A DNA stretch of 62,902 nucleotides, the filler included, from Platydemus manokwari (taxonomy: Eukaryota): assembly GCA_037951405.1 (NCBI GenBank). It is 5 parts of 5 records of this genome, joined end to end, with 100 filler letters (N's around TTAATTAATTAA, not from the genome) between each part and the next. Parts side by side here need not be neighbours in the genome. Positions count along the whole stretch, not along the records: positions 35,151 to 52,777 come from JBBMOY010944417.1; 4 more parts are not named here. The stretch is one strand, 5' to 3'. A program made the position numbers and the translations under genes. This document shows positions 3,691 to 50,234 of the stretch, one piece after another. Position 1 is the stretch's first letter. Every line of letters starts with the position of its first letter. The notes below the pieces were generated by a model. The model had not been told where the DNA came from. It worked only from the letters and a program-made list of their open reading frames with translations, and did no database searches.

Positions 3691-4290
3691 TGTTAAGTGG
3701 TCAAATAAAAAAATAAATATATACAAAAAAATCAGTTCTTTTTGAGCCCTCTGTAGCCTTCATCAGTAAATCGGTTCAGAGATATATAACATGATCTCTA
3801 GGAGCTTTCAAAAACGACAGCTGCAATGATGATGAGTTTAATGATACCGATTTGGGCCTCATTAGTGCCTCGGACCAGAAACAGATAGGACTAAAATAAA
3901 TCTAGGAAATAGCTATCCGTTTATAAACTAATTTAGAGACTAATTCATGAAATAATCCAAAACCCAGAATTACTATATTGTGATTAAAAATCCACGAAAA
4001 ATTCGACAGAATTTTAAAGTGATTACAGGCAGTAAATGTTGACGCATTATTGCCGTCAGGACAAATCCCATTGAAGTACGAAAACTCGAAGAAATCAAAT
4101 TCATAATGGGTTATTAATTGAACTACTAGTATGATGGATGATCTTGGCTCAATCAGATAATTAATTAAAAATAATAATTATATTATAATTAATTATAATT
4201 ATCATATAAAGTACACATTATCAACTAGTATAAATAGTTGAAAAATAATATATAAAATTCTACAAAAATTATTAATAATAATACAAACAA
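3691..4290 (+). mobile_element. Solo LTR of the Gypsy family whose 3' LTR is at 35151-35706
   Basis: Starts TGTTAAGTG. Colinear with the reverse complement of 35200-35706 (shared blocks acagataggactaaa, ttgacgcattattgccgt.aggacaaatccc, tggctcaatc.gataattaattaaaaataataatta). Right end approximate; no clear TSD. Confidence 0.75.
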
Positions 4291-4917
4291 ACTAGATTGA
4301 TATATCAGACACATGGTTAGTTGGCTGATGATCTCTTACTTAACTTCTCGAACTCGTTTCATTCAGTTTAACATTTCGGTTTTATATCATCTGATTGTCT
4401 CTTCCATCTACATGCTAGTGTTGTGTCAAACGTCTTGTATGAATATTTTCTTATATGATAATATTTTGTCTTCTTTCTAGCTTATCCTATAACTGTGACT
4501 TTGGACGACTTCTTTCTCTTGTCCAATTAATATTTCACCAATTAATATAAAATCCAAACATTCACATCTAGTTTGATGAAGTCACGATTTCTCTCAGTGA
4601 ATTATTTTCATTTTAAGAAACACTTAAAATAACAAAAAATGAAGTCATTAAAATAATTTCTTGTTTCATCTTGTGAATCACGTTAAGCTTAAATGCTCTC
4701 AACACTTGAGAATCGAATAACGGATTAAAATCCATGATCTCTCAAGTCTAATCATTACAAACGATACTTATCCTTTAAAAAGCTTTATATTTTTAAAATT
4801 TTTTCACAAAACTTGACTGTATTATTGCTTGTGGTTATCAATGGGTGCATTCAGTCCATTCATAGCAAAATAATTCTGATTAATGATAATTTAATTAATA
4901 AATCAATAAATTTATCA

Positions 4918-17187: not shown

Positions 17188-17609
17188 ATAATTTTCTGTC
17201 ATGGCTGTTTAGTTCGTTTGCAATTGGTGCTTTATAAAATCGGGATTCGATTCTGAGAAGATCAATGACTGAAAATTATAGAAGAGAGGGAGGATGTTGG
17301 GAAGATATAAACATGCAGAGAAGATATAAATGCAATATATAAAAGATATAAAGATATATATAATTAGAGATTTTTAGGTAGATAAATATGTAGAGTATTC
17401 GATATAATGTCATTTAAGGATTCAAAGAAAATCAAAAAATTAATGAAAGAGAGATGTGAGAATTTCGAATTTAATTAAATTATTTCATATTTGATTTTAT
17501 ATAAAATTGTACTAATTTGTTTATATAATGGTATTTAAATACATTATTTGGTGTTGTGACTTTTTAGCTCGTTTTCAGTGCGTGTTATATAAAATAGTAG
17601 CGGCTAACA
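17188..17609 (+). mobile_element. TRIM-like element, copy 2 (PBS deleted, intact 3' LTR 17455-17609)
   Basis: PPT gaaagagaga followed by TGTGAG...gcggctaaCA; partial 5' LTR and ggattcgattctgagaagatcaa internal start. Confidence 0.75.
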
Positions 17610-24994: not shown

Positions 24995-27900
24995 CTATCT
25001 TGGTCGATGAGTAGCATTAAATCGTGGTCTCGATCTCATATCAATGGTTGCAGTTGGATTTGAATAGCTACAAAATATATAACAACTACTTATCGAATAT
25101 TATTAGAAAATGTGTACTTTTTAATTTTCTCAACAATTTGATTGATATTCCGACCCAATTTGCTATTTGGACCATTCTGAAGTTCTTCAATAAGAAGTGC
25201 CTTGAAGATAAAAAATCAATCAACTAATTATAAATTTGCTTGATATTTAAGTTTTCCAATAAAATAACTGAAGCTGCCAAATTAAAACGACATCGATTTG
25301 TTATTTATTTAAAGCAATTTTCCATCGGAATATCAATTAAATAAGCATTAAAATGATTGAAGATTTTAAAATGAATTTAAATTAGAGTTTTATATTCAGA
25401 ATATATATTGAAAATATCAACTTATTTCCAATAATGTCTTTATGCCTTGTTACATGGATTTGTTTTCATGGCATGTTTTATGAAATACTTGAAGTTTTTT
25501 TCAAATCCGAAATCGTATACACACTTTAAAATTCAACTAGCCGCTGTTTCGCAATATTTTGTGTGTGAAAGGCTTTATAAACAACCAGTTCGTTGTTGAT
25601 CCTTGTGGTAAAAGTCTTATTTTTAAAATTATTTATTATTATAGCCCGCTAATATTTAATGAAGGACGTATTAACAATGAAAGTCACAGCATATTTCATA
25701 TTTATACAATTTTTTACTTTTATACTTAACCATATTAATAAATCAAATTAATATTTTTAATACAAATTCTATGTATAAATTTTTATAATTTTAGTTCATT
25801 TTAAAATCTTCACAATAATATAATAATAATAATAATTTAAATTATGAAAACCTTTGTTTTATTATAATTAACATATTTTTAACCTTTTTATAATATTTCA
25901 ACGCATTTGACATATCCTCATTCGACAGATGCAAAGAACCAATTAATTGACTCGTAGCCAATATTTGTTCGGAATATTCACCAAACACTATTTTTTCTTT
26001 TTTATAATTTGTTAACAATTTTGTCATTGCTTCCTAAGTTAAATCTGAGACTTGTATAAAGAATTCAAAACTAACAGTTTTTCGATCACATCTAATTAAA
26101 ATGCAGGCTATATCGTGTTCGATTTCACAAATCAATGGATGGTTATCACCGTGGATTAAAATCAGAGATTGAATACAATCATTTAAATAAGTTTCTGCTG
26201 TTTCTGTGGATTAAAAATATAATAATTTAATATTATTTGCATGAAAATTAGCAAAATTAACATAATAATAAATAAATAAATAAATAAATAAGGTTAATTT
26301 TAGTAATTAATTAATTGTTAAAAATTGGTTTTTTATAGATTTAATCGATGTCATAAAATCATAGAAACTTTAATAATGACGCAAGCTAATAAATCTTTTG
26401 ATTCATAAAATGGATTTTACATCATTAATAACTTTCATTATATTAAAGTTGCCCAACCAGTTAATCGTGATAATTTGCTTTAAAATCTGATATTGGAGTA
26501 ATGTTTTGTCGTGTCTAAATGAGAAATATTAAATTAACTGATTACATTTAATTGACATCTTTGATTTTTACTAAGCTATTCAAAGTTAAATAGACGCATT
26601 CAACCACAAATGTTGAGAGAAATCATATATTAACAATGCATTTTGAACAACAATTTCATGTGATATTGATATTTAATTGAGTTTAAAAGTTATTCTTTGG
26701 AATCTTCGCTAAGTAAAAGCATTTACTCAATTAAATGTGGTAATTCTGCACATTTGCGAGAAACGCAAAACTATGCTTCCACTATCATTATAACCTTCTC
26801 ATGTTCACAAGAAATATTTTATAATGTATTTCACAGTACCGAGAAAATTTAATTGAGGTTAATTCTGAAATTCAGCTTATTGAATATGCCTGAGAGTCAA
26901 TATCAGGTGGATTATATATCTTGGAATTTACAAAATGGATTCATTGCAAATATTTAGATAGCAAATCAAATGAATAATATTTTTAACCTTTTATTTAGAA
27001 AAGTTAGAAAAACAATTATAATAATTGAAATATTTATTCTTATATTCGTTTTACTTTCAAAATAAAGTAAATAAGTTTCGAAATTAAGATAAAGAAACCA
27101 AAGAATTATAAATTCGAAACATTTTAGATATTTATAATAAAGATATAGATACATTAAAGATAATTAATTAATTAATTAGGTAATTAATATAAATAACTGA
27201 AGCAATTTTTTATATTTTAATAAACAATAATTATTTTAGGCTAATCAATAAATTGGGGGAAAACATGTAATGGTATCGTGGTGTGGTCATAATTACAATA
27301 TTTCAATAAATACATATCAACTTTATTGAAGGAATAAATTGGAAGTCTTATTATATTTTCATACTCTAAAATATCTTCACGTCTCAGACATTTTCACTTT
27401 AGAAAATTTTAAATTTACCATGATACAGTATAAGATAATGATAACTGATTTGTTGAGACACAGTTGTAATTAATCAAATTTCTAATTATCAAACACATTA
27501 AAGACAAAAAAGAAAATACGATTTTCTTATAAAATTTTTATTTGTAATTAAAAGAATTGAAATAAATTTTCACTTAAAAATTTTAAATCTTTTTCAAACA
27601 TTTTAACCAATAGATGTTGAGTTAAAACAAATTTTTATTATTGCACATTTTATTTAAATTTAATTTAGATATTTAAATATCAAATGATAAATATGGAAAA
27701 CATTGATGAAAGAGAATGTATAATTTGTTATGATCAGATTAATTCACATATGATTACAATCGGTGGTTGTAATCACAGATATTGTTTGATGTGTGGACTA
27801 GAAGCATTTAGAGTTAAAATGAATTGTCCTCTTGATAAAAGTGATGTCAAACAAATCACAGTTCTCTCCAACAGTATTGATGAAGATGAAAAAGAAATTT

Positions 27901-30900
27901 TATCCATTTCATCACCAATTGCAGATCAAAATTTAACATTTCAAATAGTCATCGATCAAATTCTCACGATCGATAATCTCGACAATAGAAATCAAATCCA
28001 ATCTATGTATGTGATAGAACCATATCTATTGTGGGTTGGATCGTTTGAAAAGAACAAAGGAAAAATCACAACGGAAATGATACATAATCACTTTAATCAA
28101 TACGGAGATATTTTAAATGTCATGATATATAGTGATTGTGCTTACATATTGTATGGATGTTCGGAACATGGCATGGCTGCAGAATATGCAGTGGATAGAG
28201 AAATGTTCTATGGTGAACCATACAAAACTGGAAGTTTTGATACCGATTTTTGGGATCGTTTAGTTTCAGAAAATTAAATTGGTATTGAAAACAAATAGAT
28301 TATTAAAATAACAACATTTTTTTATGGACGAAATAAATATTTGAATACTTTAGAAATAGTTTTATGTTATAAAATTAAACATAAAAACTATATTTATATT
28401 TATTTATTTAAAAGAAAGTAATTGAGATAGAAATAATAATCATATATTACGGACATAAAAATGTAATGATTTTGATAGAATTTTCGATTTTAAAACTCTT
28501 TGAAGACTGTTTTAATATCAGGTATTTTATGATTTTATGATAAAATAATTTTTATCAGTATTTAATCTCTGGTTTTCTTAAAATAGATGATGATATCCAA
28601 TCCTTTTTTTGAAAAATATCAGGTCAGATTTGTAGAAATCTCTAACATTAAATAGAATTTACAATGCATTTTTTAATAAATATTATACATAAAATTTTGA
28701 ACTTTTTACTGATTTCATAATTCTATTAAAAAAAACTTATTTTAATTATTTAATAATTTTTAAAAATATTTTAATTAGATTCCATTTTTGTAATAAATTT
28801 TCTTTGGTAATTTTCAGTTTTAGAATGAAAGCCAATCAATTAATGTCATTAATTATCATTATTTATTTATTATTTATTTATTCATTGTGAAAGTTAAGCT
28901 ATTCAGTTAATCTCAGTTAAACAAACAGGAAAAGTGATTTAAGTATCTTGGAAATTATAATAAACATATTTCGATATATGATTTGATTAGCAATAAAATT
29001 ATCAGTTCAATATGCACATACTCTCAGACTCTATTGTTCCAATAATAGAATATGCAGATGCCAATGCTCGGGAGTTCTGAATGACTTCATTACTATGACA
29101 TTCATAGCTTAAAATATTGATTAAAATTAAATTTATTAAAAAAACAAATGATTTAAATGAAAAAGCTACTGCAATGAGATACGATAATAATCATACGATT
29201 ATAATTATTTTAATATCAATGAATTCAAATTTAATTCAAATTTTTATAAAATCAAATTTATTTGTATTTAAAAAGATTCAATTTGTTTTAAATGAAAAAT
29301 TAGCGGCTAACATGGCGACCACACCCCTGAATTCGATTCTGTAAACATTATAAAGACCACTGAAAATTATAGAAAAGAAGGAGAAAGATGAAATAATGAG
29401 ACCATATTGAGGAGATAAAAGAAAGATATAAAGAAGTTGTAGAAGGAGATAAATGATAAGGAGAAATAAAAGATATGATAAAAAATTGAAGATATGATAA
29501 AAATTTTCTCGAGATAGGAGTAATAAGACCATGCAAGAGTGCTTGTAATTCACCACCGGTCATCGTAGGAAAAAAGGACGGATCTAACGAAGACTCAATA
29601 GAGTGACAGAAAAATTGGGTTTCCCCATGCCTGGTATTCATCAACTTCTAGACTGTTTGGCGGATTCTAAATATTTCGCATCGATAAATTTGGGACAGGC
29701 TTATTACTAAGTCCAACTAAAAACAGCGTGAGGAGTTAATTCAAAATAAAATGGCTAACATGCTTCGATAAAATTGAATGGCAAAGTATATATTATTATT
29801 ATTATTATCATATTATTATATATTTCATAATATATTTGAAGTTTTGTCGTCAAATTGGATTTATTAGTATCATTATAAATAATTTTTATCAAAAGTATTT
29901 CGATAGTCCGACTTTTTTTACAGCTTTGTATACATTGTCGAAAAATATGGTGTTCTCAAGTCTGTTGTCAAAATTAAAATCAAAATCAAAATATTCAAAA
30001 AATCACACGGCTTTAAGCTAGATAAAGAACACAAAATAATCAAAACAAAATTTTCTGGGACAGTCGATCGGTTAACGAATTAACATATGTCCATCAAAAT
30101 GTGCTCAACGAAATGTGGAAAAGGCAATAAATAATAATAAATAATTCTGGTGAGATGTGGCGAGTTTGTTGATATTCTGCAGATAAGAATTTAACATTTC
30201 AAATAGTCATCGATCAAATTCTCACGATCGATAATCGCGACAATAGAAATCAAATCAAATCTATGTATGTGATAGAACCATATCTATTGTGGGTTGGATT
30301 GTTTGTAAAGAACAAAGGAAAAATCACAACGGAAATGATACATAATCACTTTAATCAATACGGAGATATTTTAAATGTCATGATATATAGTGATTGTGCT
30401 TACATATTGTATGGATGTTCGGAACATGGCATGGCTGCAGAATATGCAGTGGATAGAGAAATGTTCTATGGTGAACCATACAAAACTGGAAGTTTTGATA
30501 CCGATTTTTGGGATCGTTTAGTTTCAGAAAATTAAATTGGTATTGAAAACAAATAGATTATTAAAATAACAACATTTTTTTATGGACGAAATAAATATTT
30601 GAATACTTTAGAAATAGTTTTATGTTATAAAATTAAACATAAAAACTATATTTATATTTATTTATTTAAAAGAAAGTAATTGAGATAGAAATAATAATCA
30701 TATATTACGGACATAAAAATGTAATGATTTTGATAGAATTTTCGATTTTAAAACTCTTTGAAGACTGTTTTAATATCAGGTATTTTATGATTTTATGATA
30801 AAATAATTTTTATCAGTATTTAATCTCTGGTTTTCTTAAAATAGATGATGATATCCAATCCTTTTTTTGAAAAATATCAGGTCAGATTTGTAGAAATCTC

Positions 30901-33516
30901 TAACATTAAATAGAATTTACAATGCATTTTTTAATAAATATTATACATAAAATTTTGAACTTTTTACTGATTTCATAATTCTATTAAAAAAAACTTATTT
31001 TAATTATTTAATAATTTTTAAAAATATTTTAATTAGATTCCATTTTTGTAATAAATTTTCTTTGGTAATTTTCAGTTTTAGAATGAAAGCCAATCAATTA
31101 ATGTCATTAATTATCATTATTTATTTATTATTTATTTATTCATTGTGAAAGTTAAGCTATTCAGTTAATCTCAGTTAAACAAACAGGAAAAGTGATTTAA
31201 GTATCTTGGAAATTATAATAAACATATTTCGATATATGATTTGATTAGCAATAAAATTATCAGTTCAATATGCACATACTCTCAGACTCTATTGTTCCAA
31301 TAATAGAATATGCAGATGCCAATGCTCGGGAGTTCTGAATGACTTCATTACTATGACATTCATAGCTTAAAATATTGATTAAAATTAAATTTATTAAAAA
31401 AACAAATGATTTAAATGAAAAAGCTACTGCAATGAGATACGATAATAATCATACGATTATAATTATTTTAATATCAATGAATTCAAATTTAATTCAAATT
31501 TTTATAAAATCAAATTTATTTGTATTTAAAAAGATTCAATTTGTTTTAAATGAAAAATTAGCGGCTAACATGGCGACCACACCCCTGAATTCGATTCTGT
31601 AAACATTATAAAGACCACTGAAAATTATAGAAAAGAAGGAGAAAGATGAAATAATGAGACCATATTGAGGAGATAAAAGTTGTAGAAGGAGATAAATGAT
31701 AAGGAGAAATAAAAGAAGATAAAAATTAAAATTTTAATTTAAAAGAAGATAGTGTAACGAAAAATGCAACACAGAGACAATTAAGAAAATCAAAGAATGA
31801 AGGGATGTGAGATTTTTAAAATTTTTCTAAATTTTACTATTTTATTGATTCATCTAATTTTAATTTATTTGTTTTATTAACAAGGGATATTAATCGAGCT
31901 TATAAAAACTAAACTGACAAAAAAACTATTATAAAATATTAAAAGCCATTGATAACAGAAATTTGGTTATCGATTTAAGACGTTTTATTAAATTGTAAGC
32001 AATTTTTGGAAATAAATCCAACCACGTAGATGTTTAATTACGTAATGTTCATTTCTGAATTTACTATTTACTTCTATGATAGGTTAATAAATAAATAAAA
32101 TAATGAATAAATATAATAATAAATATTAAATAAATAAATAATAAATATTAAATAATAAATAAATAATAAATATTAAAAATATATAAAATTTGGATATTAA
32201 ACTAGTATAAATATAGAATGGATTCACAAATATGATGATAACTACAGTAAAATAGCTGAATAAGAAAGAAGTTTGATGTATCACATTATACCTAAATTTT
32301 CGAAGATAACACAAGAGTATTTACATAAATTCATATAATTATTTAAAATAATAAATAAAGGAAATTACTGTTTATTAGCAAGAGTAAGTGCCATAACATA
32401 GAATTCAATAGCCTTAGAATGATTTGATAAGGTTCCATTGCTTTGTTCAATCTAATTAATAATAATAATAATAATAACAATAATAATAATAACTATAATA
32501 ATAATAATGTTTAATAATTATTAATGTTTGAGATAAATATATAAAATTCAAAATCTCCCAATATTTGCAAATATCAAATATTCACTGATCTTATGCAATT
32601 AATTTCATGTGGATTCGAACTCACAGGCACTTTGTTTAAATTGACAAAACACTAAAAGCTATTTGGTCCAATATTTCGAAAATTTCCCAGTTGCTTATAG
32701 TGGAAAAAAATCAACATCATTAGATCTGATAGATCAACAAAAAAGAAATAAACCTTTCCTAAAAATTGATAAATTGGAATCAAATCTGTAGTTTCATCGC
32801 CTTTATTAGTCCTGATAATTTCAGCGGCAATATTCATATAGTTGGAAGCCGTTGACAATTTTTGCAAACGCCAAGCTATTCTGTATATAATGATAATGAA
32901 TTCAATGATTCAAGACTTCACAAACATACTTGCCTGCTGCAATATTCAATTTTAATTTCAACGAAAAGTTTTCATCATCAAATGTTGTGGAAACTTTCCT
33001 CAGCACATTTAAATTATACAATGCTTTGTTGATATTTTTTTCACTGTTCTCCAATCTGAAATATTATTTGTCTCATTCATAGCAACATGATATTTTTAAT
33101 TAAAACGAATATAAATAGTTTAAAAATAGCCAATGAAGTTGTTTATATACACAGCCTTTTTTAATTATATGTAAGGATTTTAATATTCAAATAAAATTAT
33201 CTTTCCCTATCAAATATTTGTTGTTTGATCCAATGTAACCTAATATAATTATAACCGAACTAACCATGTCGGAAGAAAAAGAAAAAATTAATATTTTCCA
33301 TATGAAACAAACCAATCATAAAATTTTAATTTATATGGATTTATTTTTTGTATACTTACTTTTTCAACACAAATTCAGCTCTTGCTAATGCGTAATAAGT
33401 ATAAATCAAAGCTAATAGATATTCCACACCTTCTTTTTCATTGAATATTTCAACAGCATGTTTTAATAATAATGTCAAAGCGTCATTTGCATGTTCTTCA
33501 CATTGAGCTGCATATC
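24995..33516 (-). CDS. TTC23: TTC23/TTC23L-like tetratricopeptide-repeat protein, multi-exon, 5' exons not found
   Basis: Phase-compatible GT-AG exons: 33360-33516 (GYAAQCEEHANDALTLL), 32930-33055, 32754-32880 (IRTNKGDETTDLIPIYQFLGK), 32369-32451 (IEQS...KAIEFYVMA), 31280-31365 or 29022-29107 (YECHSNEVIQNSRALASAY), 26076-26203 (TAETYLNDCIQSL), 25884-26033 (KIVFGEYSEQILATSQLIGSLHL), 25118-25200 (ALLIEELQNGPNSK), 24995-25067 (stop). Block order matches my recollection of vertebrate TTC23 (KGETSRECVPILRELAGVEQ; KVEAFGDFSPEVAETYRLLGG). Confidence 0.8.
27684..28277 (+). CDS. Intronless RING finger (C3HC3D) + RRM-like protein, nested antisense in a TTC23 intron
   Basis: C-x2-C-x13-C-x-H-x2-C-x2-C-x10-C-x2-D. 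C-terminal RRM pattern: LWVG (RNP2), ITTEMIHNHFNQYGDILNV, CAYILY (RNP1), AAEYAVD...FYGEP. Confidence 0.8.
   Translation: MINMENIDERECIICYDQINSHMITIGGCNHRYCLMCGLEAFRVKMNCPLDKSDVKQITVLSNSIDEDEKEILSISSPIADQNLTFQIVIDQILTIDNLDNRNQIQSMYVIEPYLLWVGSFEKNKGKITTEMIHNHFNQYGDILNVMIYSDCAYILYGCSEHGMAAEYAVDREMFYGEPYKTGSFDTDFWDRLVSEN
29210..29520 (+). mobile_element. TRIM-like element, copy 3 (truncated)
   Basis: gcggctaaCA (29312) followed by PBS tggcgaccacac and the purine-rich core. Confidence 0.7.
29540..29722 (+). mobile_element. Gypsy reverse-transcriptase fragment, same family as 40001-44080
   Basis: Matches the reverse complement of ~42170-42370 (SPPVIVGKKDGS...PMPGIHQLLDCLADSKYFASINLGQAYY). Confidence 0.8.
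30178..30535 (+). pseudogene. 5'-truncated duplicate of the RING-RRM gene (RRM only; ORF 30263-30535)
   Basis: Near-identical to 27920-28277; RING region absent. Confidence 0.75.
31470..31880 (+). mobile_element. TRIM-like element, copy 4
   Basis: LTR end 31570, PBS from 31571, PPT aaagaatgaaggga, then TGTGAG at 31806; 3' LTR truncated. Confidence 0.7.
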
Positions 33517-35150: not shown

Positions 35151-38100
35151 ATTTCAAAGTATATCTTAAGAAATTTATTGTGACTTTGCATAATATTGTT
35201 CAACCATTTATATTAGTTGATAATATGTACTTTATATAATAATTATAATATAATTATTATTTTTAATTAATTATCAGATTGAGCCACTATTACTCGTAGC
35301 TCTATTTGTAATACATTTCATTCTCCAAGGGATTTGTCCTCACGGCAATAATGCGTCAAAAGTTACTACCTGTCAGCGCTTTAAAATCCCGTCGGGTTCT
35401 GCATGAATTCTTTGCACAATATAGTAATCCTAGGTTTTGAGTTTCTTAATGAAATGGTCTCAAACTAGTATACAAACAGATAGCTATTTTCTAGATTTCT
35501 TTAGTCCTATCTGTCTATGGTCTGAGACATTGATGAGGCCCATGGAAGACAGAAATAGGACCCTATCTATGTCATAAAAGTTCGATCATCATAATTGTAG
35601 ATATCGTTTCTAAAGGTTCCGAGAGATTGTCCTATATATTTCTAAAGCGGGATCATGATAAAACCTACGGTAGTCTATTTATTTATTATATCTTGATCAC
35701 TTAACATATCTCCCCCTTTTAAATGAATTGTGTCCTCAAAATTTAAGGTCAGTACTATGTAATATACTTTTTTATTTTGATTTAATTCATCAATTCGGTT
35801 AGTGAATATTTATATTTTTATGTTTTGAATTATTATTTACTTATTTGCATAATTACATAATTTTTATTAAGTTACATAATTATATATGATGATATGTAAA
35901 TTTCAAAGATTAAAAAAAATTTTAATTTATTTACTCAATTATTAAACTTTAGAGTTCCAATTTCTCCACTTGGTTTTTGGAAGGTTAGTTTGGTGACTGT
36001 CTTCAGAATTTTCCACATTTGATCTTTTATTCCAATTTCATTTTTGATATTCTTCCTTGAGGATGATTCGACAACTCTTTGTGTACTTTTCTCAGCTTTT
36101 TCTATGGATTCTGATTGTTGATTATATTTACTTTCATTTGATATTTCCGTTTTTGGATCTTCTATGGTTTCTTCAGTGTCCTCAATTGTGCACTCTTGTG
36201 ATAAATTCCAAGTTTCGGTAGGTTCCTCTTCAGAATCCTTCGTTAAAACTATTTGATCACTCGTGTTGGTTGATAGTTGTGGACGCAGATCTTTTGGTGT
36301 TTTCTCCAGTTGAATTTGAATTTTGAAATTGTCAAAAACCATTTTTATCTGCTTATTACTTGTTTGATCCTCGCTATTCTTCCTTTTTCGATTTTCTTCA
36401 ATAGGAATTTTGACTCTCTCCTGTGACTTTATTTCGTGGTGATTTCTCTAGTTTTTCTCGATATTTAAATATATTTTTCGCACCGTTTTGGAATCTCCTA
36501 ATGAATTGTGATGTCCTGGTTGTTGTATATCGATTCCGCATAATGTTTTGGCGATGATCTTCAGTGGAAAATATAATCCAGAATTCTTACGTGGTTTTCC
36601 CATATCAAATAATATTTGTGCGTTGCATAGATCACAAATGCCTAAAATTTGATTCACTTTTATTGAGAGATATAATAGTCCATATTTAGATCGTGCCTGA
36701 CCAGTATTTTTGTTTCTGATTATTTATTGGAATTTTCTAATATATTCATATTCGTTCATTTTTCTTTTGGTTTCGAATTCAGTGATTCCGTGAATATTAT
36801 TAACGAATTCGAAAATCCTACCTCATTGATTTATTTTCGTATCAAGCAGGACCTCTACTTCGTAATTGAGAATCGTAACCGATGCTGGGAATCTGTTGTT
36901 ATCTAAATTCTTTGTCGTGAATTCGTCATCAATGAAGAGGAGATTTTCTCTAATTTTCTCCAAGCTGAAATGTGTTCTGAGGAGGGAGTTTCGGTGTTTT
37001 ATATCTTCTTCCGTTCTCAGCATTTTCTAGAGCTGGATATGGATTGTATGTTTTGGGATTGTATGTTATTGATTGGATCGCTCAATATTTCAAAGCTTTT
37101 AGAGCGGCTTGATATTTGGATTTTCTTGGATTTTCTTGGTCCAATCTTTTTCGTTTGACATTATGAATAATTTTCTCCAGCCAGATTTTTGACTTGGAGT
37201 TCTCCAACTGAAACATGTAGCTCCCAAATTCCGATGGCTTTCACTTCTCTTAATTCGTTTAGCTACATTTTCTTTTCTTTAGGAACCTCTGTTATCCAAA
37301 TTCAATTTTCCAGTCTGTTGACCGAAGATAATTTGGCATTTCGGAGTTGGAACCAAAGCTTGTCATTGGAAATAGATTTGTTTTTTTTTAGATTTTCTTA
37401 ATATCACGATACAATTGTTTTGTTCTGTTGATTTGTTCCATGGCTTTGATTGAATTGATTGAATTGGATCGAATGAAATATACTTCTTTTATTGAATCCT
37501 AGCCAGTACAGACGTCGGATCAGTTTTGGCAGAATGTTTATGTTCCTTGATGACTTATTTATATCCTTAGTTTTACTGGTCGACCAATAGCCTTTGGTTT
37601 TAAATTTGTTTGATTAGTTATTATTTTGTTTAAATTAGCCTATGAAAATATAGATATAGATACAGTTATAGACATAGATATAGATACAATTATAGATAAG
37701 GATATAGATATCAAAATTTATACTTATACATGATTATAAACATATTACAGATAAAATGCATGCACAAAGTTAATCAGTGTTTGTTTAAACTAAAGTTGAC
37801 AGAATCAATTCCCTTCGAGCTTGATCAAATGATGATTTGACAGTCAAAGCAGTGATCAGTAAGAATGTAATAGATAGGGATGTAATAATTATTGTAATTC
37901 TTATCAGCTCAACGCATTCAAAATTCTGTGGAGTCGATTGGAAATTGTTCTAAGAATTAAGTTGCAATGATTGATTGAAACCAGTTACGGGTATTGTCAT
38001 TCTAGATTCTGAAATATTATTATTAAATTTATAATAATTATTATTAATGGTTAAATATTCTTCTGTATAGCTTTGATGTTTTTATCTTAATTGAAATATA

Positions 38101-40000
38101 TTCCACCAGTTTCAGTGTTCATATATCAATTTCCATATCAAGTTCATATATTAATTTCCAATATTCTACCTTTAATTGATATTGTTCATCTTGCAGTAGG
38201 TTTGTAATTAAACCTATTGATACATTTCAGTTTTTATAGACCTATACAGCTTAGAGTAATGACAGCTTTTTATTAGGTTCAGCATGTCTTCTTATTTTGA
38301 TTTCTAAACCAATTTTAGTCATTAAGTTTTTATTGTCTTCGATTTCCAGGTTTAAATATCGCTCTTCTGAGAATATTTTTACCCATTTATCTACCTCATA
38401 TTTCCAATCATCTCGTAATTTAAGTTCGTAATATGTTATCTGGACTACATATTTTCTACTTAACTTAAGGTTTTAGTACTTAAGGAACCTATTTTGATTA
38501 TTCATTTCTTCTGTATAGTTCTATTGATCTCTTTCTATCAAAATGTTGGCTTCCATTTTAGAATAACCCCTTTAAATATTGGCTCAATTTCAATTTTATT
38601 TTTAATATTTTTTGTTCATATCTATAATTTTATTCTGGCCAATTGTAGTCGTTTAATGACCTATCCCAATATGCAATTCTCCACAAATATATACTATTTG
38701 TTTTCAAATCTCTTATAATTATTTTATTATTGTTGCCGTCCTACTTAAATTTCTTTATAAGATTATTGCTTATACTCCAAATCCGTGAAGTTCTAAGATT
38801 TCGACAGTCGCAAATCCACATTATGATAGTGTAGAACGAATATATAATAACCTCTTTAACTAATTCCTCTAGCTGGATTCAGTCTCACTTCATCTTTTGA
38901 AATAACATGACAAATATAAAATACTTTCGATTTTGCTCATTCGAAATTAGATGCTCTGATTTTGAGATTGGCCATTTTAAGTCGTTTAAATACTTCTTCA
39001 ATATCTATTTAATGTTGCTCAAAAGGTTTGGACAATGTAATTACATCGTTTATATATAACATTGCATGAGCTACATCCATAATAATGAAGTCCATACCCC
39101 GTTGAAATAAACCGCTGAGTTCAAAAGGTAATACGTTGAATTCGTATGAACATTATCCATCTGTAAATGCTGTGTTACATTTATCTTACTCTTTAGTTGG
39201 GAACTACCAGTAATCTTTATTGAGATCTATTGTCGAAAATATTTCTGATTTTCCCATTTTTCCGTAAATTACATGTGTTAAAGGAATAGGGTAAGTATTT
39301 TTTCTTGTGAGAGCTTTCATTTATCTGTAGTCGACACGCCATCTCAGAGTACCGTTCTTTTTTTTTAACCACAGGAAAACCCCATGGTATAAAAGCTAGA
39401 TATTATAATTCTTTACGTTTGCTTTCATTTTGAAATGCATAGGTAATCCTTTATGGTCTTAGTTTAAAAGGACTACTAAGCCCTGATAATAGTGGTATTT
39501 TGTGTTCAACTACATGTGTGCTTCTTACATCGAATTCCTATTTGGCAACAAATCTAGAACATTTCTTAAATAAATAGATGAGTCTGCTTTCATGGAATTG
39601 TTAAAATTTCACTATTTGTTGTTATTTTACCATAATTTGTATATTGAATTTCAAGTGATTTTACGTTATCTGATTTTATGATTGGAGTTAGAATTACTAA
39701 TTTTGTATCGCGTTTTAAAGTGATTGATTTTTCATCGATGTTTACCAATCGTATTGGAACAGCATTGTTTTCAGATTGAACAACAAATTTTAGATTTGGT
39801 TCAAACAATAAATCACCATCGCATTGGTTCCAAGTGTCGGCATAATATACAATGTCAGATCTAGTTGGAATGGTAACAGTTTGCTTTATAAAAACCTCTT
39901 TGAATTTATGTTCTACCTTACCTGTTTCCATATTTAAAAGGTTACCAGTAAGCAGATCCATAACTATCCTTCCAAGTTGTTCAAGAATATCCATTCCTAA
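35151..40000 (-). mobile_element. Decayed Ty3/Gypsy element (3' part): protease end, RT fragment, extra ORF, PPT, 3' LTR
   Basis: LGMDIL protease motif at ~39985-40000. RT remnants at 38950-39470 (KKNGTLRWRVDYR, YPIP, FSTIDL, YEFNVLPF, LYINDV). PPT AAAAGGGGGAGA at 35709-35720, then LTR starting TGTTAAG at 35706, homologous to the solo LTR at 3691. Confidence 0.75.
36448..36960 (-). pseudogene. Degraded DEDDh 3'-5' exonuclease (REX4/ISG20-like) inside the LTR element
   Basis: Joined translation: LLFIDDEF (ExoI DxE), PASVTILNY...VLLDTKI, IHGIT, KILVRHDLNMD (ExoII), ICD, LKIIAKTLCGIDIQQPGHHNSLGDS (ExoIII HxxxxD). Contains stops and frameshifts. Confidence 0.8.
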
Positions 40001-43000
40001 CAGTTACGTCATTACCAATTTCAGGCATAATATTTATTTAAAAATCTACACTAATTCACCAACCAATTATTTAAACAAATACAACGTGTTACTTTATTTA
40101 ATCACGTTGTTCGCCTCCTCTTAAAGACCACTCCACCGTTTCAGCCACTCTAATCCCTTCGATTTTATCACATGAGGGAATTGAATCTTCACTTGTCTGT
40201 CTGACGTGAATCCAATAATTTGATAGGGGCCTTCGTATTGGTATCCATTCTTCTTCCTCTTATGGGGATCTAGCACCTTCTCTCACGCATGATAAGCTCG
40301 ATGTGTTCTTTTTCCCCTGTCTCTGTTAGACATTATGTCGGCTGCTACTTTAGAATTTTCTCTAGCTGCTGCTGCAATATCATCTCAAGTTTGGTCCTTG
40401 TGATTCACATCTGTATGAACATTGATCCTCCGCTCGTAGATTATCTCGAAAGGCGAGAACTTCGTGTTGATTGATGTGTTGCGTTGATGCAGAACTCTAT
40501 GCTTGGAAACAATTTAGCCCAATTTTTCTCATGGCTCCCACCCATAAAATAGTTGTTATCATATCCCGTATCGTCCTGATGACTCATTCCGCCAGCCCGT
40601 TTGATTGATGCTGGTATGGTGAGCTGAATTCTTGTTTGATACCCAACTTTAAACACGCTTCCCTCATTTTGAACAAGTCTCTTTCATAAATCTGAATCCA
40701 AATTGTTTCCTGTTATCAGATAAAATGCCCTTTGACTTCAAAATGACCTAGAAAATTGTCTTTTCGTCTTCCTTAGATGTAGCAGTGAGGCTCACCAGCT
40801 GATGAAAACTTGTCGATAATGACTACTAGATACTTCTTGTTACTATACATCGTATCCATTTTGGAAGTGCCCACCACGATTTGCTCTTGAATCTCAGAGC
40901 CTAACCGAGGGAGCAGAAACTCCTTAGTTCTGGATTGATCAATATTTCTCTTTGCACATATAATACATTCTCTCAGTATCTCTTCGATGGTGTTAAACAT
41001 GTTGGGCCAATAAAAACTCTCGTCCAAACATGCGAAGGTTTTCTTTGAGCCTACATAGCAGAGTTCCTCGTGAATTGTCTTGACAAATTGAGCGGCAAAA
41101 TCTTTATGTATTATAGCAGCTAAACCTTTCTCTTTCTCCAGCATCAGCGTATTATCGACAACCTTCAGTTTATCTTTAATTCTCGAAAGTGAATGTTAAT
41201 TCCAGAATTCCGGGATAGTTAGAGTTATTTCACCATTTAGAAACCTGAATGTCTCCACTATTTCTGTATCGTTGTGCTGTGATTCCTGTATTTTTCTACA
41301 TTAAGTCTGAATTTATTTGTATTTGGGCTAAATATTTAGTTTTCTGTTTCGGTGTTTGCTCCATCGTGTCTCGTCTTGCACTGGGAACATAGTGTCTCGT
41401 AGATCCTAGACAATCCATCTGCGTTGTTATGATTCCCTCTTTTTCTGTATCTTAAATCGTAATCGTGTTCTGACAGAGCTGCCAGCCATCTTTGAAATTA
41501 AAGGCTGATCGGTTTTCGTATCGAGTTCAAGCATACCAGGGATTTCTGATTCGTCCTCGTGATGAATTTCTTCTCGTACAAGTATTGTCTAAAGTAAATA
41601 ACATACTCAATAATAGTTTCTTTCTGATAACACAGTACCTTTTCTCGTGACTAGTCAGCAATCGATACCCATAAGCTATAACTACTTCTGCTCCTTCTTC
41701 AGTAACTTTGCTTAGAACAGCCCCGATTGCATCGAAATTTGCGTCCGTATCGAGTACAAATATCCTGTTTTCTTTTGGGTCATCTAAAATTGGTGCTTCA
41801 CATAGTGCCGACTTTATCTTCTGGGTATTGGGGCATCTTGTATCTGTTCGATTTTGTTGTAATTAGTCTATATGCACTTGGCACTGAGCATGCGGCCTAA
41901 AAACCTTACATCATCTCTGATAAGTGTACATTTCCTCAAATTCACTTTCATACTCAACTCTTGAATTCGTCGAAAAACATGGCTTCCAGTAGATTGCATG
42001 CTCTAACTGAGTTTTTCCGTATATTAACACATCATCAAAATATACCCCAAGGCCACTCAACAACTTGTGCATTAGTTTTTAAAAGGTTGCTGGTGCCGTA
42101 GATAGTCCAAACGGGAGTCTGTTGAGATAAAAGCCGTCTTGTGATAAAAGCCGTGCAATCTTGGGATATCGGACTTAGTTCTACTTGGTAATAAGCCTGT
42201 CCCAAATCTATCGAGGAGAAATATTTAGTATCTGCCATACAGTCTAGAAGTTGGTGGATAACCGACATGGGAGAACTAAATTTTTATGTCACTTCATTGA
42301 CTCTTCGATAATCTACACACATCCGGATCGATACGTCTTTTTTTCCTACGATGACCAGTGGTGAATCTTGAGCAAGTTTTTTATCACATCTTCGATTTTT
42401 GCTTCTAAGTCCATTAGCTGTCTTTTGGGATTCTGTGAAATAGGATTTCCTATAATCATAATATCGTGAATAACTAGGTTGTTTCTGTCTAGATCCAATT
42501 TTGAAACCATAAATATTTTTCCATATTCCTTGACGAGTCTTCCAATTCTTCAGTGTTCCCAGTCTTGATCGGTTCCTTTGCGTGTCTCGATTTTTTCTCA
42601 TCTGTATATTTGTTGTTAAATTGTGATGAATCGATTGTGGCCACATCTTTCAGCTGAATCAATACCCCCAATGAAATAGGGACAAATTCTTTTTGTTATC
42701 ACAACCCTACTTTTTCTTTTCTTTCCTTTCCACTCAGCAATCACATCTGAATAGTCCAGAGAGCTTTCGGCACCCGTTTAAAACGCTTCTCTAGGCGTAA
42801 TCAAACAATCTTGCAATTTTAGGCTTTCCATTTTCTTCCAATAGTTCTCGCTCATCAATGTGATAGACTCTCCCGTATCCCACAACCACTCTACTTCACC
42901 TCCGTTGATCAACACTTTATTTCACACTCTAGTGTCGTCCTTCTTAAACATCTCTTCACGTGTGTTTCCATTTTGAATTTTCTTGTGATCTATTGATTCA

Positions 43001-44080
43001 ACTCCATCGACGAAATGTATACGACAGGATTGTTGTGGTTTTTTGATCTTCTATCTCGTGCATTACTGGGTCTTCAATTGGATCAAATTGCTCCTTGATC
43101 TCGTCCTGAATACATAAAATTCTACCTTCTACGCTGTGTCTTGTACTTCGTATTAAATGGCATGAACTTCTTGTCCGCATATTTAACATTTGTGCCTAAT
43201 GGGACACAGGCTTCCGTAGTGTCCGCTTTCTCGACAGCAGAAGCGATTTTCTACGCACAATCGTTCTTCTTTTGGATCTGGCATGCCTCGACACTTATTT
43301 TAAAGTTTCTTGGCCATGTATTTCATCGAATACATTGTTTTTCATCTCTTTCTACCTGAAGCGAACATCTATTCTGAAGCTATTGGCTCGGGGTTCCGTG
43401 TTCTGATAGAATGGGGCAGATTATAATTACAGGACTCGTTGCTTTCTTTTTGTACTGGTTATTCCACCGGTTGTTTCTTCCAGTTTCTTGCGATTGGGCA
43501 TAGCTGTCTCTACGAATTGTAGAGAATCTCGTTGTGAACTTTGTTTTCGATTCTCGAACATTTTTGCAGCACTTCTATGATAACCGTGTCTGGTTTTAGG
43601 GCAAGAGTGTCTTTTAACCTATTCGATCTTGTTTTCTTGCTGATGATATCGTTCACTATGAGATCTTGTTTCAATCGGGAATTCATCACTGCCTCAACCA
43701 ATCTGTGAACTTTTATCTCGAAAGTGACAAACCGTTCGCTCTCCGATTGTTGAACATTTGCCAGTTTGACAATCATATCCATTATAGATTTTTTTTATTG
43801 TAAATGTATCTTCATACCACGATTTAGATGACTCTTCTGTGGTATCTTTCGATTTGAAGTATTTCCACAAGATACCTTCCTCTTCTGAAAGCAGTAAATT
43901 AAATGCGCTGATCAGGCTGAGATTATTAACTAATATCTACTCCTCTGTATCTTGCATCCACTTTGCCGCTTCATTGGAATTTCTTCCCTCGAATTTTTGA
44001 ATATTGAAATTGAGTGATATCGATTTTAGTAGTAAATAGAACTAGATTTTGGAGGCTTAACCCTGACCCCCAACTATCGA
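40001..44080 (-). mobile_element. Decayed near full-length Ty3/Gypsy retrotransposon (gag-PR-RT-RNase H-IN)
   Basis: gag ~43150-44020; protease WDTGES ~42880; RT RMCVDYR and KYFSSIDLGQAYYQV; RNase H VLDTDA..AIGAVLS ~41710-41760; integrase HEELC...FYWP...CIIC and KYLVVIIDKFS; short LTR-like end ~40001-40104. 5' LTR not found. Confidence 0.9.
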
Positions 44081-44979: not shown

Positions 44980-47900
44980 TCAATTATTTCCATCACAAAA
45001 CATATTGCCGAGAACTCCAAAATATCCGAAATTAAGGAAAGCAATTGATTCTTGCATAAACGGATACAAACTAAAAAGTCTAGTTATTTCTATTTGAAAA
45101 ATGTCAGAGTTAAACAAATTTCCGTTAAGATACACCTAAAATACAAATTTCAATTGAATATAATTTCGTTTTAAACTTTTATTTACAAAAAAAATAAAAT
45201 ATAATAATTGTATAAATATAAGAATTAACAAATTTTTATATTCAATTTAAAAATATTGTGAGTGATAATTTCAAAAATATTTTTAATAATAATCTTGAAT
45301 TATTTTAACTGCAAAATAACAAGCTCGGATTTTTGAAATCTTGTACTTTCAATAATATTGTTAATTGACTTTGCTTGTAATATCAAAATGAGCTCAACAA
45401 AGTGCATCTTATCAAGTAAATTTAATACAATTTGATGTAATTTTAAGATTATTTATTATTCAGAATAGGCTAATTTTATTAAGAAATGTATTATAAAATA
45501 CAGAAATTTGAATAATTTGACTTTATAATATTCTCGTTTTTGCTTGACCTCGGAGTCGGAGTACAAACAACGTTTGCGACATTAATTGAAATCAAAACAT
45601 TTTATTACCTAACGTATCATTATGACAATTTTGTATAATCGTTGATGTAATAAGAATAGTAGAATATTAATTCAAAGGTTTTACAAATATTATAGTATTT
45701 AAACAAATACACATATATACATATATTACATCCGTCCGTCTTCCGAAAAAGCCTGCGTCTTGGTAATTCAGGTATCTTGCTGGCATTTTATTTCCGGTAG
45801 ACCTCTTCATTTTCCCGCTCACCTTTGGTAATATCTCCTTTTTTGAGTCATCATTTCAGTTGATGCTTTGTCGCTTGCTTATACTTTCGATACTAGTATC
45901 ATTATCCCATCCTCCATCATCATTTGCGATATTATCTGTATTTCAGATTTTTTTACTTGATTATAGTTTCGTTTAATATTTTTATTCAAATTCTGACTAT
46001 GGAGCTTATAAGTCGATGCATTTATTTTCTCTAAAATCTTGAATGAATCTACAAATCTTTTACCAAAAGATTTGTAAAGAGGATTTTCAATCATTACCGT
46101 ATCACCAACTGATAATTCATGGGAATATTTCCCTCGGTTATAGTATTCTGCTTGCTTCACAATCTGATTCTTATTATAATTCTGTACTTCTTCCAAAATT
46201 TTCCTATGATGATTCATAAACTCTTCCATAATTTTCTTTTTATATATGGCCTTGACCCATTAATAAATAGCCGTGGTTTTTTACCTAAAAGAACTTAGAA
46301 TGGCGAATACTTCATTGATTTGTGCGGTGACATCCGCCATCCCAGCATGAGTGATTCTTCAATGATGCTGTAATTATGCTTTGCATTATCCTAAAAGTTT
46401 TCTTAATTAGTCAATTTGACAGTGGATAATATGGGGAAGAAAATGTTCTCTTTATTTCCATACTGACGCATAATTCTGATATTAATGTCGATTGAAAATT
46501 CGTTCAGTTGTCTGAGTGTATGCGTTCTGGAGATCCAAATTTGCTTATCCCCTCTTTCTATAATGCCTTGGGTAAATTTTCTGTGGTGATATGCTTTAAT
46601 TGGATAAGCGATACATATTTGGAAAAATAATCTATTATTATAATATTATACCTAGTATAAACCGGTTTTCTTGATTTGTTTCAGGTTATGATTAGGCAAT
46701 ATCGATACCAACAATTTTGAACGGCTTTATTTGTGATTATTATTAGCAATTTGGCTCTATTTCTTCCATCAATTTTAAAATTTGAATCCAAATTTTAATA
46801 TCACAATAAATTCTATTTTTCTTATAGTACAATGCATCACTTCTAATTCACAATTATTCATTCTTTTTCCACATATTTTTGTAACGATAAATTTTTTATA
46901 AATCTATGACAATCCCGCTGAGAATGACATTTATCATCATTTTCAATTCTTCATCTTTATTCTGATCTAACAACTGTCTTGTTCCATTCGACACAAAACT
47001 TTCTCATTTTCCTTACATGATACTTTGGATTTTTCAAAGTTCACCTTTATATTAACTCTTTTTGTGGATTTTGATGCTTGATAGAGCGTTATTCACATTG
47101 TGGAAATCGTGATATCGCATCTACATCGATGTGTTCTTTGCCTTTTCTATATTATATTTCCATTTCAAATATTTCAAACTATGCTTTCCATATACAATAT
47201 TGGTATATACAGAAATTGGTATAGCGGTTGGGTAATATCAGCAAAATCCTTTATAAACCGCCTATAATAATTACATAATCTCAGAAATTCCCGTAGGTCC
47301 TTGACACTGAGGATTTAACTAATTTTTATTATCGCAAGTTTGTCTTCATCTGTTCTTATGTCGTTACCGTCAATCACAGGTGCTAAATATTTAATTTCTT
47401 TTTTTAATAGAAAACATTTCCTTGAAGGCATTTTCAATCCAGCTTCATCCAATTGACTCAAAACTCTTTCCAACCTTTCATTGTATTCATTGACTGTTCT
47501 TCCAAATATCAGAATATTATCTAGATGGATTACACAGTTTGTCTAATTTTCGGTCTTCAATACCATATTCATAAGTTTCTAAAAAGTCGCAGGCGCTGAA
47601 TATACTCCAAAGAGCATTTGATTAAACTAAAGATGTCTGTATCTAGTACTGAATGATGTTTTTTGTTTACTTCTTTCTCCAATTTAACTTGATGGTATTA
47701 GTGTCCAAATCCATTGTTGAAAAATATCTGGCTCCTTGTCTTCTGAATCTGTAGTAAAACTATCTATGTATTTCGATAGAATCCTCTTAAGATTATTCTT
47801 ATCCTCAGAATTCAGTTTATCATCTAAGTTCTGCACAATGTTTTTTTTTTAATATTTTATCTAATCTACTTTCTCTCTTTTTGGAATATAAATTATATAA

Positions 47901-50234
47901 CCCAAGTGAATTCACAATGCCGTATTCACATATTAGGAGATCTCCTCATTTTGTTTGAATCATCCTTTTTCATTAGTCTATTGACTAAATCTTAGCTTAT
48001 TACATTAAGCTCAGCTCCCTTATCAAAGACTATCTTCAATTTCTCATTTTCAATACTTCAATCGACTATTGATTTATTTATGCCTTTTCTGGTCTTCGGT
48101 TCGTTATAAGCATATCTGCTTTTGTCAATAATCTATTTGGTTTAGCCCCTTGCCCATTGACTAGTTCTGCATAATTGTCCTTGATCGAAATGAATCGATT
48201 GTGTCTAGACTTTCTTGATTTAACTTGTTTCCAGAAAGTGTATCTATGCTCAAGACATTTTCCTCGTCTGATGTGATGCTTCTTTCTTAGGCATTTAAAT
48301 ATTTGACATCCTTGACATCTGTACGACAGAATCTTTACAGATGGGAGTCACCACTTCGAAAACATTCAACTGTTTTCCAAAAACAAGAATATTATCCTTT
48401 TTTAAAAAACAAACTTGAAACAAACTACATCCTTCGTTGGTTTTCGGCTCTCTTTTAATTACGAAATGTATTTCTTGAGCCTTAAATTCTCAGCCTTTAA
48501 TCTTTGATGTCCTTTTTGTCTGATTTTATGTGTTTCACATCCATAGGTTATACAAATCTTTGGATTCTGGCTATGATACATCAGTTTCTTCAATGATAAG
48601 TCTGACGGCTTCATCTATATTTTTGGGGTTGTATTGCTTCAGTCCAAATTTGTAGCTCTTATTAAAAAACCTCTTCCTTATTTTCAATATTTATTCCAAC
48701 CAAGGAAATTTTAAATATTTTTGAAAAGTCCTTGATGGACCCCGACGGCTGTTGATAAAGTGTCTCGACAATCGAATATGGTGTCATTGCTGACTTCTTC
48801 GTGTATATATCAACAAGAAATTTTAAACTATATTAAACGGAGTTTTTAGTTCTGAGATTTCCACCGAAACGGTTAAGGTTAGAGAAAAATTTGGAAAATA
48901 AATTCTAATTAAAAAGTACTTGTGCAAGTTATTGATAAAACCCTTCCTGGAGACGTTAATTGTATTACTAAGTCAGTTTTGGTTATATTTTTCATGAATA
49001 TTTGTTATGTTTTGCAAAATTATAAATTGTTTTATAACATTATATTCAAGTTTAAAAACATCATCGGTGATAATAACCTTTACAATTATTATTCATTTCT
49101 TTGTTAATATTATAGATGTAATTAATTAATTTAAAAATTATTATTAGAAATATTTTTCTTAAATCGGTTTAATTTATCACCTATGATACAACCAGCTATG
49201 ACGCAAGTAAAATAATCTAAAGATCAATGCAACAAGTTGATAAAAACAATAATTCATTGAAATAATTTATAGAAAATTCTTACTTTTTTCACCTTTTTAA
49301 GTAAACACATTGTAATACACGTAATTACAATATTAAATGCATAAAATCCTATCAAGGAAAGTGCTAGGTCTTTTTTGGGAAGATCCGATAAGCCTTTATC
49401 ATAATCGGCACATTTTCCGAAACTAAATATTGGTAAATATTGAGGAAATTTTCCATAAGGTGAATCAATATTTCCATCCAGTATCTCCTTTACTACTGTA
49501 TCAACTGTCGTTCGATTTCCATGACGAGCAAGATCAACTAGTTCACAGTAATTCTTAAACTGTGTAAAAATTCAAGAAATCAGAACAAATTGTACATTTG
49601 TATCCAACAGACATTTTGCTAAACCTAAAAGAGATTTTCCACCAAAGAAATTTATCCCGAAAGACTGAGGATTGTGGTCGTCATCAAAATGCAGAAATGC
49701 CGAACATGAACCATGCACATAAAACATACAAGGATAATGTGAGGATATATCTTTTAAATCATTTTTTTCAATCTTCAATTTCTTTTTCATGCTTTCCAAA
49801 AACTGAAGCAATAACAGCAAACATATTATTGATATCAATAATTATGCTCATGAACATTCACCTTATTTATTATTTCACCGTCAAAGTCTCCATAGCCTTC
49901 GACTTGAATATCTTGAACAACCATGTTTTCAATACCTATTTGTTCTAAAGCTATTTGATATCCAATAATTAACGAATTCAGTTCATCTATGAATTTAACA
50001 TCTTTGTTCAGAATCGATTTTATTTTATCTCTAAATATCATTTCATTATTTTATTATAAATATAAAATCCATCAAACTTGTTTCTCATTGCGAATACACC
50101 TGTTATGCGAATCTTGTAATCATTATCATCCAGTTGTAATGCATTCATTTGTAGAAATTTCAATGCATCTTCAAAATCATTGATCAAAATTTAGTAATTG
50201 TTCAAATCAGATTCGAAACCCTTTCAATATCTTT
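44980..50234 (-). pseudogene. Divergent type II pantothenate kinase (fumble)-like gene, intron-containing, disrupted
   Basis: Exons 50078-50234 (IRITGVFAMRN; contains stop and frameshift), 49862-50030 (FIDELNSLIIG), 49596-49802 (YPCMFYVHGSC...FGGKSLLGLAKCLL), 49284-49559 (LARHGNRTTVDTVVKEI...FSFGK...KKDLALSL), 44980-45135 (VYLNGNLF...AFLNFGYFGVLG). Order matches the PanK motifs ATGGG, LDELDCL, YP.LLVNIGSG, GGGTFLGL, GD...VDKLV.DI, SSFG, EDLA, VVFVGNF, GYFGAVG. Splice phases are compatible. Confidence 0.8.
45646..48800 (-). mobile_element. Heavily decayed Ty3/Gypsy element inside the last PanK-like intron
   Basis: 85-bp 3' LTR 45646-45730 with TGTAATA...TATTACA termini, preceded by a purine-rich tract. 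Integrase remnants 45880-46730, RT remnants 47250-47750 (YFSTMDL, FGVYSAPATF, IHLDNILIFG), CCHC-like gag ~48290-48370. Confidence 0.8.

Follow-up and report, generated by a model that had tools for sequence, protein, structure and literature searches.

A likely REX-group DEDDh exonuclease in an accessory ORF of a dead LTR retrotransposon from Platydemus manokwari

We analyzed a stretch of 62,902 nucleotides from Platydemus manokwari (GCA_037951405.1; hereafter the window), comprising five contigs joined by N spacers, and found on the contig at 35152-52777 a broken exonuclease ORF upstream of a polypurine tract (PPT) and an LTR. On balance, we favor the view that this locus holds the 3' part of a dead animal LTR retrotransposon (element B), with a REX-group DEDDh exonuclease in an accessory ORF (likely 500 or more codons) upstream of the PPT and LTR, that the exonuclease was copied together with the element, and that it likely served in trimming or destroying host RNAs, e.g. 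the small RNAs of silencing. The features are collected in Table 1.

Table 1. Features of element B and of the related solo LTR, by position in the window.
Feature	Position	Strand	Remarks
Solo LTR, same family, other contig of the window	3691..4345	+	~655 bp; TGTTAAG...CTTAAC ends
3' LTR	35152..35706	-	TGTTAAG start at 35706 behind the PPT; cut by contig end
Polypurine tract	35709..35720	-	sequence AAAAGGGGGAGA
Acidic low-complexity tail	35938..36447	-	exonuclease frame, one stop between; 0 stops in 170 codons
DEDDh 3'-5' exonuclease domain, likely REX group	36451..36945	-	broken: 2 stops and a short frame slip; 5/5 catalytic residues kept
Decayed N-terminal extension of exonuclease ORF	36946..37639	-	spread over three frames; covered by diverged contigs
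T-richer spacer	37640..37950	-	ends in acceptor-like TTTTCATAG, then G (AG at 37641-37640), a candidate acceptor for splicing to the exonuclease ORF
ORF X (decayed; second accessory ORF)	38044..38881	-	two frames totalling ~280 codons; truncated 5' at the junction
Reverse transcriptase (RT), broken	38862..39368	-	6 stops; Pfam RVT_1, E 2e-9
Protease tail (LLGMDIL) and protease-RT spacer	39593..40003	-	open over 137 codons

The domain can safely be assigned to the DEDDh exonucleases from its predicted catalytic residues. All three Exo motifs are present, as a preliminary description of this DNA had reported. We find 5 of 5 DEDDh residues, with a spacing like that of ISG20 and SDN1; a loose three-motif pattern, with motifs picked when the locus was already in view, found one site in the window and none in any of 120 local shuffles. 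On the minus strand, the catalytic codons are D (36930-36928) and E (36924-36922) in Exo I, D (36680-36678) in Exo II, and H (36510-36508) and D (36495-36493) in Exo III; counted from the first Asp, the later four follow after 2, 83.3, 140 and 145 codons. For comparison, residue numbers in the accessible portion of PMC10899777 give 2/83/138/143 for ISG20, 2/84/139/144 for ISG20L2, 2/84/134/139 for SDN1 and 2/110/156/161 for Pan2. IDDEF of Exo I and the C-terminal LKIIAKTLCGIDIQQPGHHNSLGD share the same frame of the exonuclease ORF, while the Exo II motif ILVRHDLNMD is read in another frame over ~30 nt, the site of the frame slip. Stops in the exonuclease frame lie at 36825-36823, 36726-36724 and 36450-36448; the domain itself contains 2 stops in 165 codons vs. 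13.0 expected (P 0.001).

We think it likely, judging from signature residues, that this domain belongs to the eukaryotic REX group (Rex1/Rex3/Rex4/ISG20/SDN), with DL in Exo II (HDLNMD) and IQ upstream of Exo III (GIDIQ). The earlier label of REX4/ISG20 holds as far as a REX-group DEDDh enzyme is concerned, but is narrower than these residues can support, since in the accessible text of PMC12129344 DL and IQ are also given for Rex1/Rex3-related enzymes; the same text describes DCEM in Exo I as typical of Rex1/Rex3. The window copy has DDEF in Exo I, not DCEM, other contigs vary at the middle residue, and Phe corresponds to the ribose contact Met14 of ISG20. Pointers to the subfamily are split: the Exo II-to-His spacing of 57 is nearer to ISG20 (55) than to SDN1 (50), and the mixed profile described below leans to SDN1 and ISG20L2. 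Overall, the domain resembles ISG20, ISG20L2, REXO4, Rex1/Rex3/REXO1 and SDN1 in D-x-E, H-D-L-x-x-D, IQ and H-x4-D and in the near-identical spacing, but unlike these REX-group host enzymes it has DDEF in Exo I, displays no recognizable RRM, AlkP, KIX or CHORD domain, resides in a retroelement and is too diverged for direct PDB matches. Very probably, the exonuclease domain was derived from a host REX-type gene.

Library searches, performed with the broken copy as query, yielded weak matches. The Pfam check proposed in the preliminary description did return RNase_T as the family (E 0.014), but at 16.4 bits it remained under the curated cut-off of 24; beside it, a match to Gemini_V2 (E 0.053) was at chance level. 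A PHROG exonuclease family was matched at E 0.12, and the sole phage match among 50,697 records, at E 0.3, was an annotated DEDDh exonuclease. Since the three weak searches (Pfam, PHROG and phage) all name DEDD exonucleases, they point the same way, with none of the matches of the exonuclease passing a curated library cut-off. Relative to the phage enzyme by itself, a profile in which the window protein was added as a second row gave lower scores for all 8 bacterial DEDDh rows, took ISG20 from 20.6 to 17.9 bits, raised SDN1 from 17.2 to 18.4 bits and newly brought in ISG20L2, a shift that may reflect a weak pull of the window protein towards the REX group. Phmmer with the whole domain or its halves returned no DEDD protein from the PDB; a word-based search of a collection of 5.8 billion proteins yielded 243 longer candidates and 9 of near length, none of them a relative; and viral contigs, prokaryote genomes, plasmids and NCBIfam gave nothing. 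One metagenome candidate (L001), the only one of 139 stretches to pass, was rejected as an antisense frame of a metabolic gene. An AlphaFold model of the exonuclease, built from the single sequence without alignment, had a pLDDT of 35.8 and was set aside as a guide to a DnaQ-like fold.

The 3' end of element B is of the Ty3/Gypsy type, with the PPT directly followed by an LTR that has a TG start and inverted ends. The inverted end CTTAAC was read from the solo LTR, and its last base departs from CA. The solo LTR is 74% alike to the 3' LTR over 399 columns, with no PPT before it and no clear target-site duplication. Some 1.3 kb before this solo LTR, at 586-2400 on the plus strand, another LTR element has left faint traces of RNase H and integrase; being just 32% alike to the relatives of element B, they do not belong to the same family. 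The placement previously given for the exonuclease, in sense with the RT and upstream of the PPT and LTR, is borne out, all of these lying on the minus strand.

The pol region of element B retains a protease tail and the RT only. We take LLGMDIL to be a protease motif and presume that the protease-RT spacer resembles dUTPase; neither the tail nor the spacer had a Pfam match at E 0.1. The element lacks its 5' half, namely the 5' LTR, gag and most of the protease, with a different Gypsy element, A, abutting at 40002. The broken RT is 65% identical to two intact proteins, P0007 and P0008 (6 matches among 124 candidates), from short contigs of 2.1 and 3.7 kb. These nearest relatives have the order RT-RNase H, in part followed by integrase [RT-RH(-INT)], and in tblastn they match as far as 38862-38868, so that element B lacks RNase H and integrase. 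With these losses, the stops and the frame slip, the earlier view that this copy is dead stands.

Between RT and exonuclease, we identified a second decayed accessory ORF. The ~1.3 kb upstream of the exonuclease, called unassignable in the preliminary description, includes this ORF X (38881-38044), which is depleted of stops (4 in 125 codons, P 0.006; 6 in 159 codons, P 0.002) and rich in Trp, Tyr and Lys, and which matches no family, Pfam included. It is not a remnant of this family's RNase H or integrase, as its best match to pol proteins was at E 0.09 where 65% identity would be expected. A second LTR within this stretch was also considered and rejected; the depth peak there is a 37-nt AT-rich patch (38012-38048). 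The order on the minus strand is therefore RT, ORF X, exonuclease ORF, PPT and LTR, and ORF X keeps the exonuclease ORF from following pol directly.

This arrangement raises the question of whether the block of ORF X, exonuclease, PPT and LTR is the 3' half of another LTR element or of a non-autonomous derivative, joined to the RT at 38862 by nesting and deletion; the exonuclease would even then be cargo of an LTR element. The contig is indeed a nest of elements, with A abutting B, and with C and an inverted copy of A further upstream; in addition, a deletion at 38862 is required in any case, and none of the contigs listed crosses this position. Against this, the two sides are on the same strand and in the expected order with no LTR at the junction, RT, ORF X and the exonuclease, and hence both sides of 38862, share one order of summed sequencing depth, and a single internal deletion is the simpler event. 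We consider such a joining of two elements unlikely, and surmise that RT and exonuclease quite probably belong to one Gypsy family.

As for the other elements of this nest, Gypsy family A is represented by two decayed copies, 80-84% alike, at 40002-44070 (minus strand) and 50350-52467 (plus strand). Its terminal repeat is very short (~107 bp, 40002-40108), ends in TAACT and is by far the deepest-covered stretch in the sequencing run. The third decayed Gypsy element (C), at 45750-48900 on the minus strand, contains RT, RNase H and integrase remnants ~30% alike to the relatives of element B. Between two retroelements, at 49257-50050 on the minus strand, are fragments of pantothenate kinase (Fumble) in several frames, either a pseudogene or exons.

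The exonuclease domain is probably flanked on both sides within its own ORF. The acidic stretch, earlier described as an ORF at 35935-36342, does exist, but probably not as a separate ORF, since it continues the exonuclease frame behind one stop; taken as one frame, exonuclease and tail comprise 336 codons with 3 stops, and a diverged contig covers 36080-36653, i.e. the end of the nuclease and the tail. We conclude that the acidic stretch is probably the C-terminus of the exonuclease ORF, and that, for this reason, a single ORF of at least 500 codons probably made up the gene. On the other side, the N-terminal extension was thought to run in one frame to ~37400-37560; instead, each of its three frames has 5-6 stops per 141-142 codons, which is few, but significant for none of the frames (P 0.07-0.13). 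Pfam, PHROG and the PDB offered no match for this extension, and a dsRNA-binding domain, suggested by a resemblance, was dropped for want of Pfam or PDB support. Sense-strand A richness falls in the spacer ahead of the extension, and the acceptor-like site at 37640 shares first place with 3 other sites by a crude pyrimidine score. Whether the ORF encoded one protein, comprising a basic N-terminal part, the nuclease and the acidic tail, from a spliced subgenomic RNA like that of env-type ORFs is in our estimation about an even chance.

Base composition, as a possible sign of long residence in the element, was also compared with that of the AT-rich animal host. At all third positions, A exceeded T in 6 of 6 stretches of element B and T exceeded A in 5 of 5 host ORFs; at four-fold sites, values were 0.73 for the exonuclease, 0.57 for the host and 0.54 for pol of element B (p 0.15), with the A/T difference gone, and composition was set aside as an argument. 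Host-type genes in the window include a single-exon rhodopsin/Srw-type receptor at 23189-24223. On the plus strand, a tandem duplication at 27669-31725 (2258 bp spacing, 98.5% alike) carries a small gene with a RING finger and an RRM-like C-terminal part, of which the second copy is devoid of the RING part; and two intronless paralogous ORFs (4738-5871 and 10270-11292), 47.5% identical over 303 residues, have a signal-like start, one C-terminal hydrophobic segment and no Pfam family. A further intronless ORF on this strand, at 61043-61948, falls into the endonuclease/exonuclease/phosphatase family (Pfam PF22669, E 9e-19) and presumably resembles inositol 5-phosphatase. Dispersed repeats of one family occupy 12430-12720, 17240-17610, 29300-29480, 31560-31725, 54070-54640 and 60135-60730; they share a conserved AACATGGCGACCAC core, have AT-rich arms and are in some cases inverted.

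Other copies of the element were seen as contigs of one public sequencing run, probably of the source sample, and are therefore paralogues and not independent support; contigs were placed at 80% likeness, and the best 8 of 2487 and best 8 of 327 pieces were considered. No RNA data sets were among the matches listed for this stretch. Among the pieces listed, diverged contigs ~85% alike to the window copy have 44 other letters over 36363-36653, 63 over 36368-36823, 86 over 36080-36653, 38 over 37375-37637 and 45 over 35692-35996, the last spanning the tail end, the PPT and just 15 nt of the LTR. Near Exo I, up to 5 contigs are unlike the window copy at one place. One contig each joins 36823-37058, 36960-37244, 37015-37823 and 38226-38372 at 80% likeness, with a weaker joint at 38048-38593 (21 letters on the short side). 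These single-contig joints chain the nuclease stepwise to ORF X in other copies, from the PPT to ~38600; among the pieces listed, none runs across the RT junction. Hence, the co-occurrence of the exonuclease with LTR and pol proposed in the preliminary description holds from exonuclease to PPT, but is not extended by any listed contig across 38862 to the RT.

Since diverged copies hold the exonuclease with its flanks up to the PPT, we conclude that it was copied with the element rather than inserted once. An unrelated processed pseudogene that landed in a dead element, which the preliminary description had named in advance as the finding that would speak against it, is compatible with the absence of introns; nevertheless, the exonuclease recurs with its flanks in several contigs ~85% alike, and no poly(A) remnant is found behind the ORF, the only A run of at least 7 in 35700-38000 being at 37389. 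This explanation is largely refuted and we regard it as highly improbable.

The long diverged pieces hold indels of their own and every long copy listed is broken; the element family looks dead, and it also looks old. In the slipped stretch, small indels set other contigs apart from the window copy, in keeping with private damage. Of 356 difference rows, 40 were considered, with 23 falling in the nuclease; 3 at breaks were left out and 20 kept. These 20 in-frame differences number 9, 6 and 5 at the first, second and third codon position; third positions are not in excess and no catalytic codon is hit, a spread that reflects decay in the window copy and is no evidence of selection. Summed depth was 26-118 over most internal bins vs. 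1255-4602 over the LTR, figures that do not give a copy number; bins of low cover (37650-37737 and 38266-38353) were not taken as absence. An exonuclease-less derivative of the element may exist; the joint at 35933-38027 that skips the exonuclease ORF (one contig, depth 6.6) is likely false, as it ends in the AT-rich patch at 38012-38048.

The lack of a third-position excess, together with the low internal copy cover and the broken state of all long copies listed, would also fit a single capture of a host REX-type mRNA, which then travelled as a passenger for a few rounds of copying and brought the element no benefit. On the other hand, close protein relatives would be expected had a conserved host gene been copied recently, and none emerged from the 5.8-billion collection; moreover, 5 of 5 catalytic residues are kept despite a divergent Exo I, and the flanking domains fit no host REX architecture by Pfam. 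Accordingly, we view a mere passenger as quite improbable, and prefer an exonuclease that the element likely used.

The preliminary description spoke of an undescribed system. This is too strong, as exonuclease ORF3s have been published for LTR elements of bdelloid rotifers: in the accessible text of Rodriguez, Kenefick and Arkhipova (2017, PMC5408684), Juno and Vesta have a DEDDy, RNase D-like ORF3 with a DEED pattern, its function untested, as restated in available portions of PMC6431247, PMC5718144 and PMC6338049. Like Juno and Vesta as described there, element B comes from an animal, is of the Gypsy type, has a protease-RT spacer and places a DEDD exonuclease ORF behind pol, where env would be. 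Unlike them, as far as the accessible descriptions go, it has: 1) His in Exo III and Asp in Exo II, in place of the Tyr and the DEED change of the bdelloid ORF3s, along with REX signatures; 2) a long acidic tail; and 3) a second accessory ORF before the exonuclease. The giant planarian Gypsy elements Burro and GYPSM1 are similar in AT-rich invertebrate host type, position of a dUTPase-like spacer and accessory ORFs, but are much larger, with larger LTRs, and no exonuclease is listed among their accessory domains in the accessible text of PMC6431247. Arenavirus NP and nidovirus nsp14 ExoN are likewise cases of an RNA-replicating agent that acquired a DEDDh nuclease, with arenavirus immune evasion as a functional model (PMC7968707, accessible part); in contrast, these are not retroelements, are other DEDDh branches and have zinc fingers, whereas no finger is evident in element B. 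None of the open full-text matches listed describes a REX-group DEDDh ORF in an LTR element; one may exist in Repbase, subscription papers or supplements. While exonuclease capture by LTR elements is thus already known from the bdelloid DEDDy ORF3s, element B would be a separate, independent capture from another DEDD subfamily.

If our preferred reading is correct, one Gypsy family would carry at least two accessory ORFs behind pol, with the last one expressed from a spliced RNA like env-type ORFs. Its two-metal DEDDh 3'-5' nuclease would remove nucleotides from the 3' ends of single-stranded RNA, as do ISG20, ISG20L2 and SDN1, for which this mechanism is established, and silencing small RNAs of the host may be trimmed or destroyed, thereby blunting host RNA silencing. 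Host silencing RNA is, by analogy with SDN1 and arenavirus ExoN, the target to which we assign the largest single share, though one short of an even chance. Animal piRNAs are 2'-O-methylated at the 3' end. Internal 2'-O-methylation hinders ISG20 (PMC10085690, accessible part), so an attack on piRNAs would be hindered, which counts against this target. SDN1, with the same fold and a near spacing, trims Argonaute-bound microRNAs (PMC6123492), and arenavirus ExoN suppresses innate signalling (PMC7968707), both as given in the accessible portions of these sources.

Alternatively, the nuclease may have served the element's own cycle, by trimming the 3' end of the element RNA or of the tRNA primer, or by clearing single-stranded by-products of reverse transcription. 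A role of this kind was proposed for the bdelloid DEDDy ORF3s (accessible text of PMC5408684), REX-group enzymes mature stable RNAs (PMC10899777 and PMC12129344, in the portions available) and ISG20 acts on both ssRNA and ssDNA; yet most Gypsy elements complete their cycle without such an enzyme, and for a separate downstream ORF outside pol, packaging into particles is not a given. We hold this to be fairly unlikely, and continue to prefer host RNA as the substrate. In its most extended form, our preferred reading would have a Gypsy lineage independently capturing a REX/SDN-type DEDDh RNase and keeping it in a spliced, multi-ORF accessory region as a suppressor that strips Argonaute- or PIWI-bound small RNAs, convergent with bdelloid DEDDy ORF3s and arenavirus ExoN; this we put forward as speculation with perhaps a modest chance of being right in full.

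If the link to pol holds, LTR retrotransposons would have taken up 3'-5' exonucleases at least twice and from different halves of the DEDD group, DEDDy in rotifers and DEDDh here. Such repeated capture would argue for a real benefit and sharpen the question of what ORF3s other than env do. As REX/SDN-type enzymes have well-studied host models in ISG20 and SDN1, counter-silencing would become testable with a naturally intact relative of this element.
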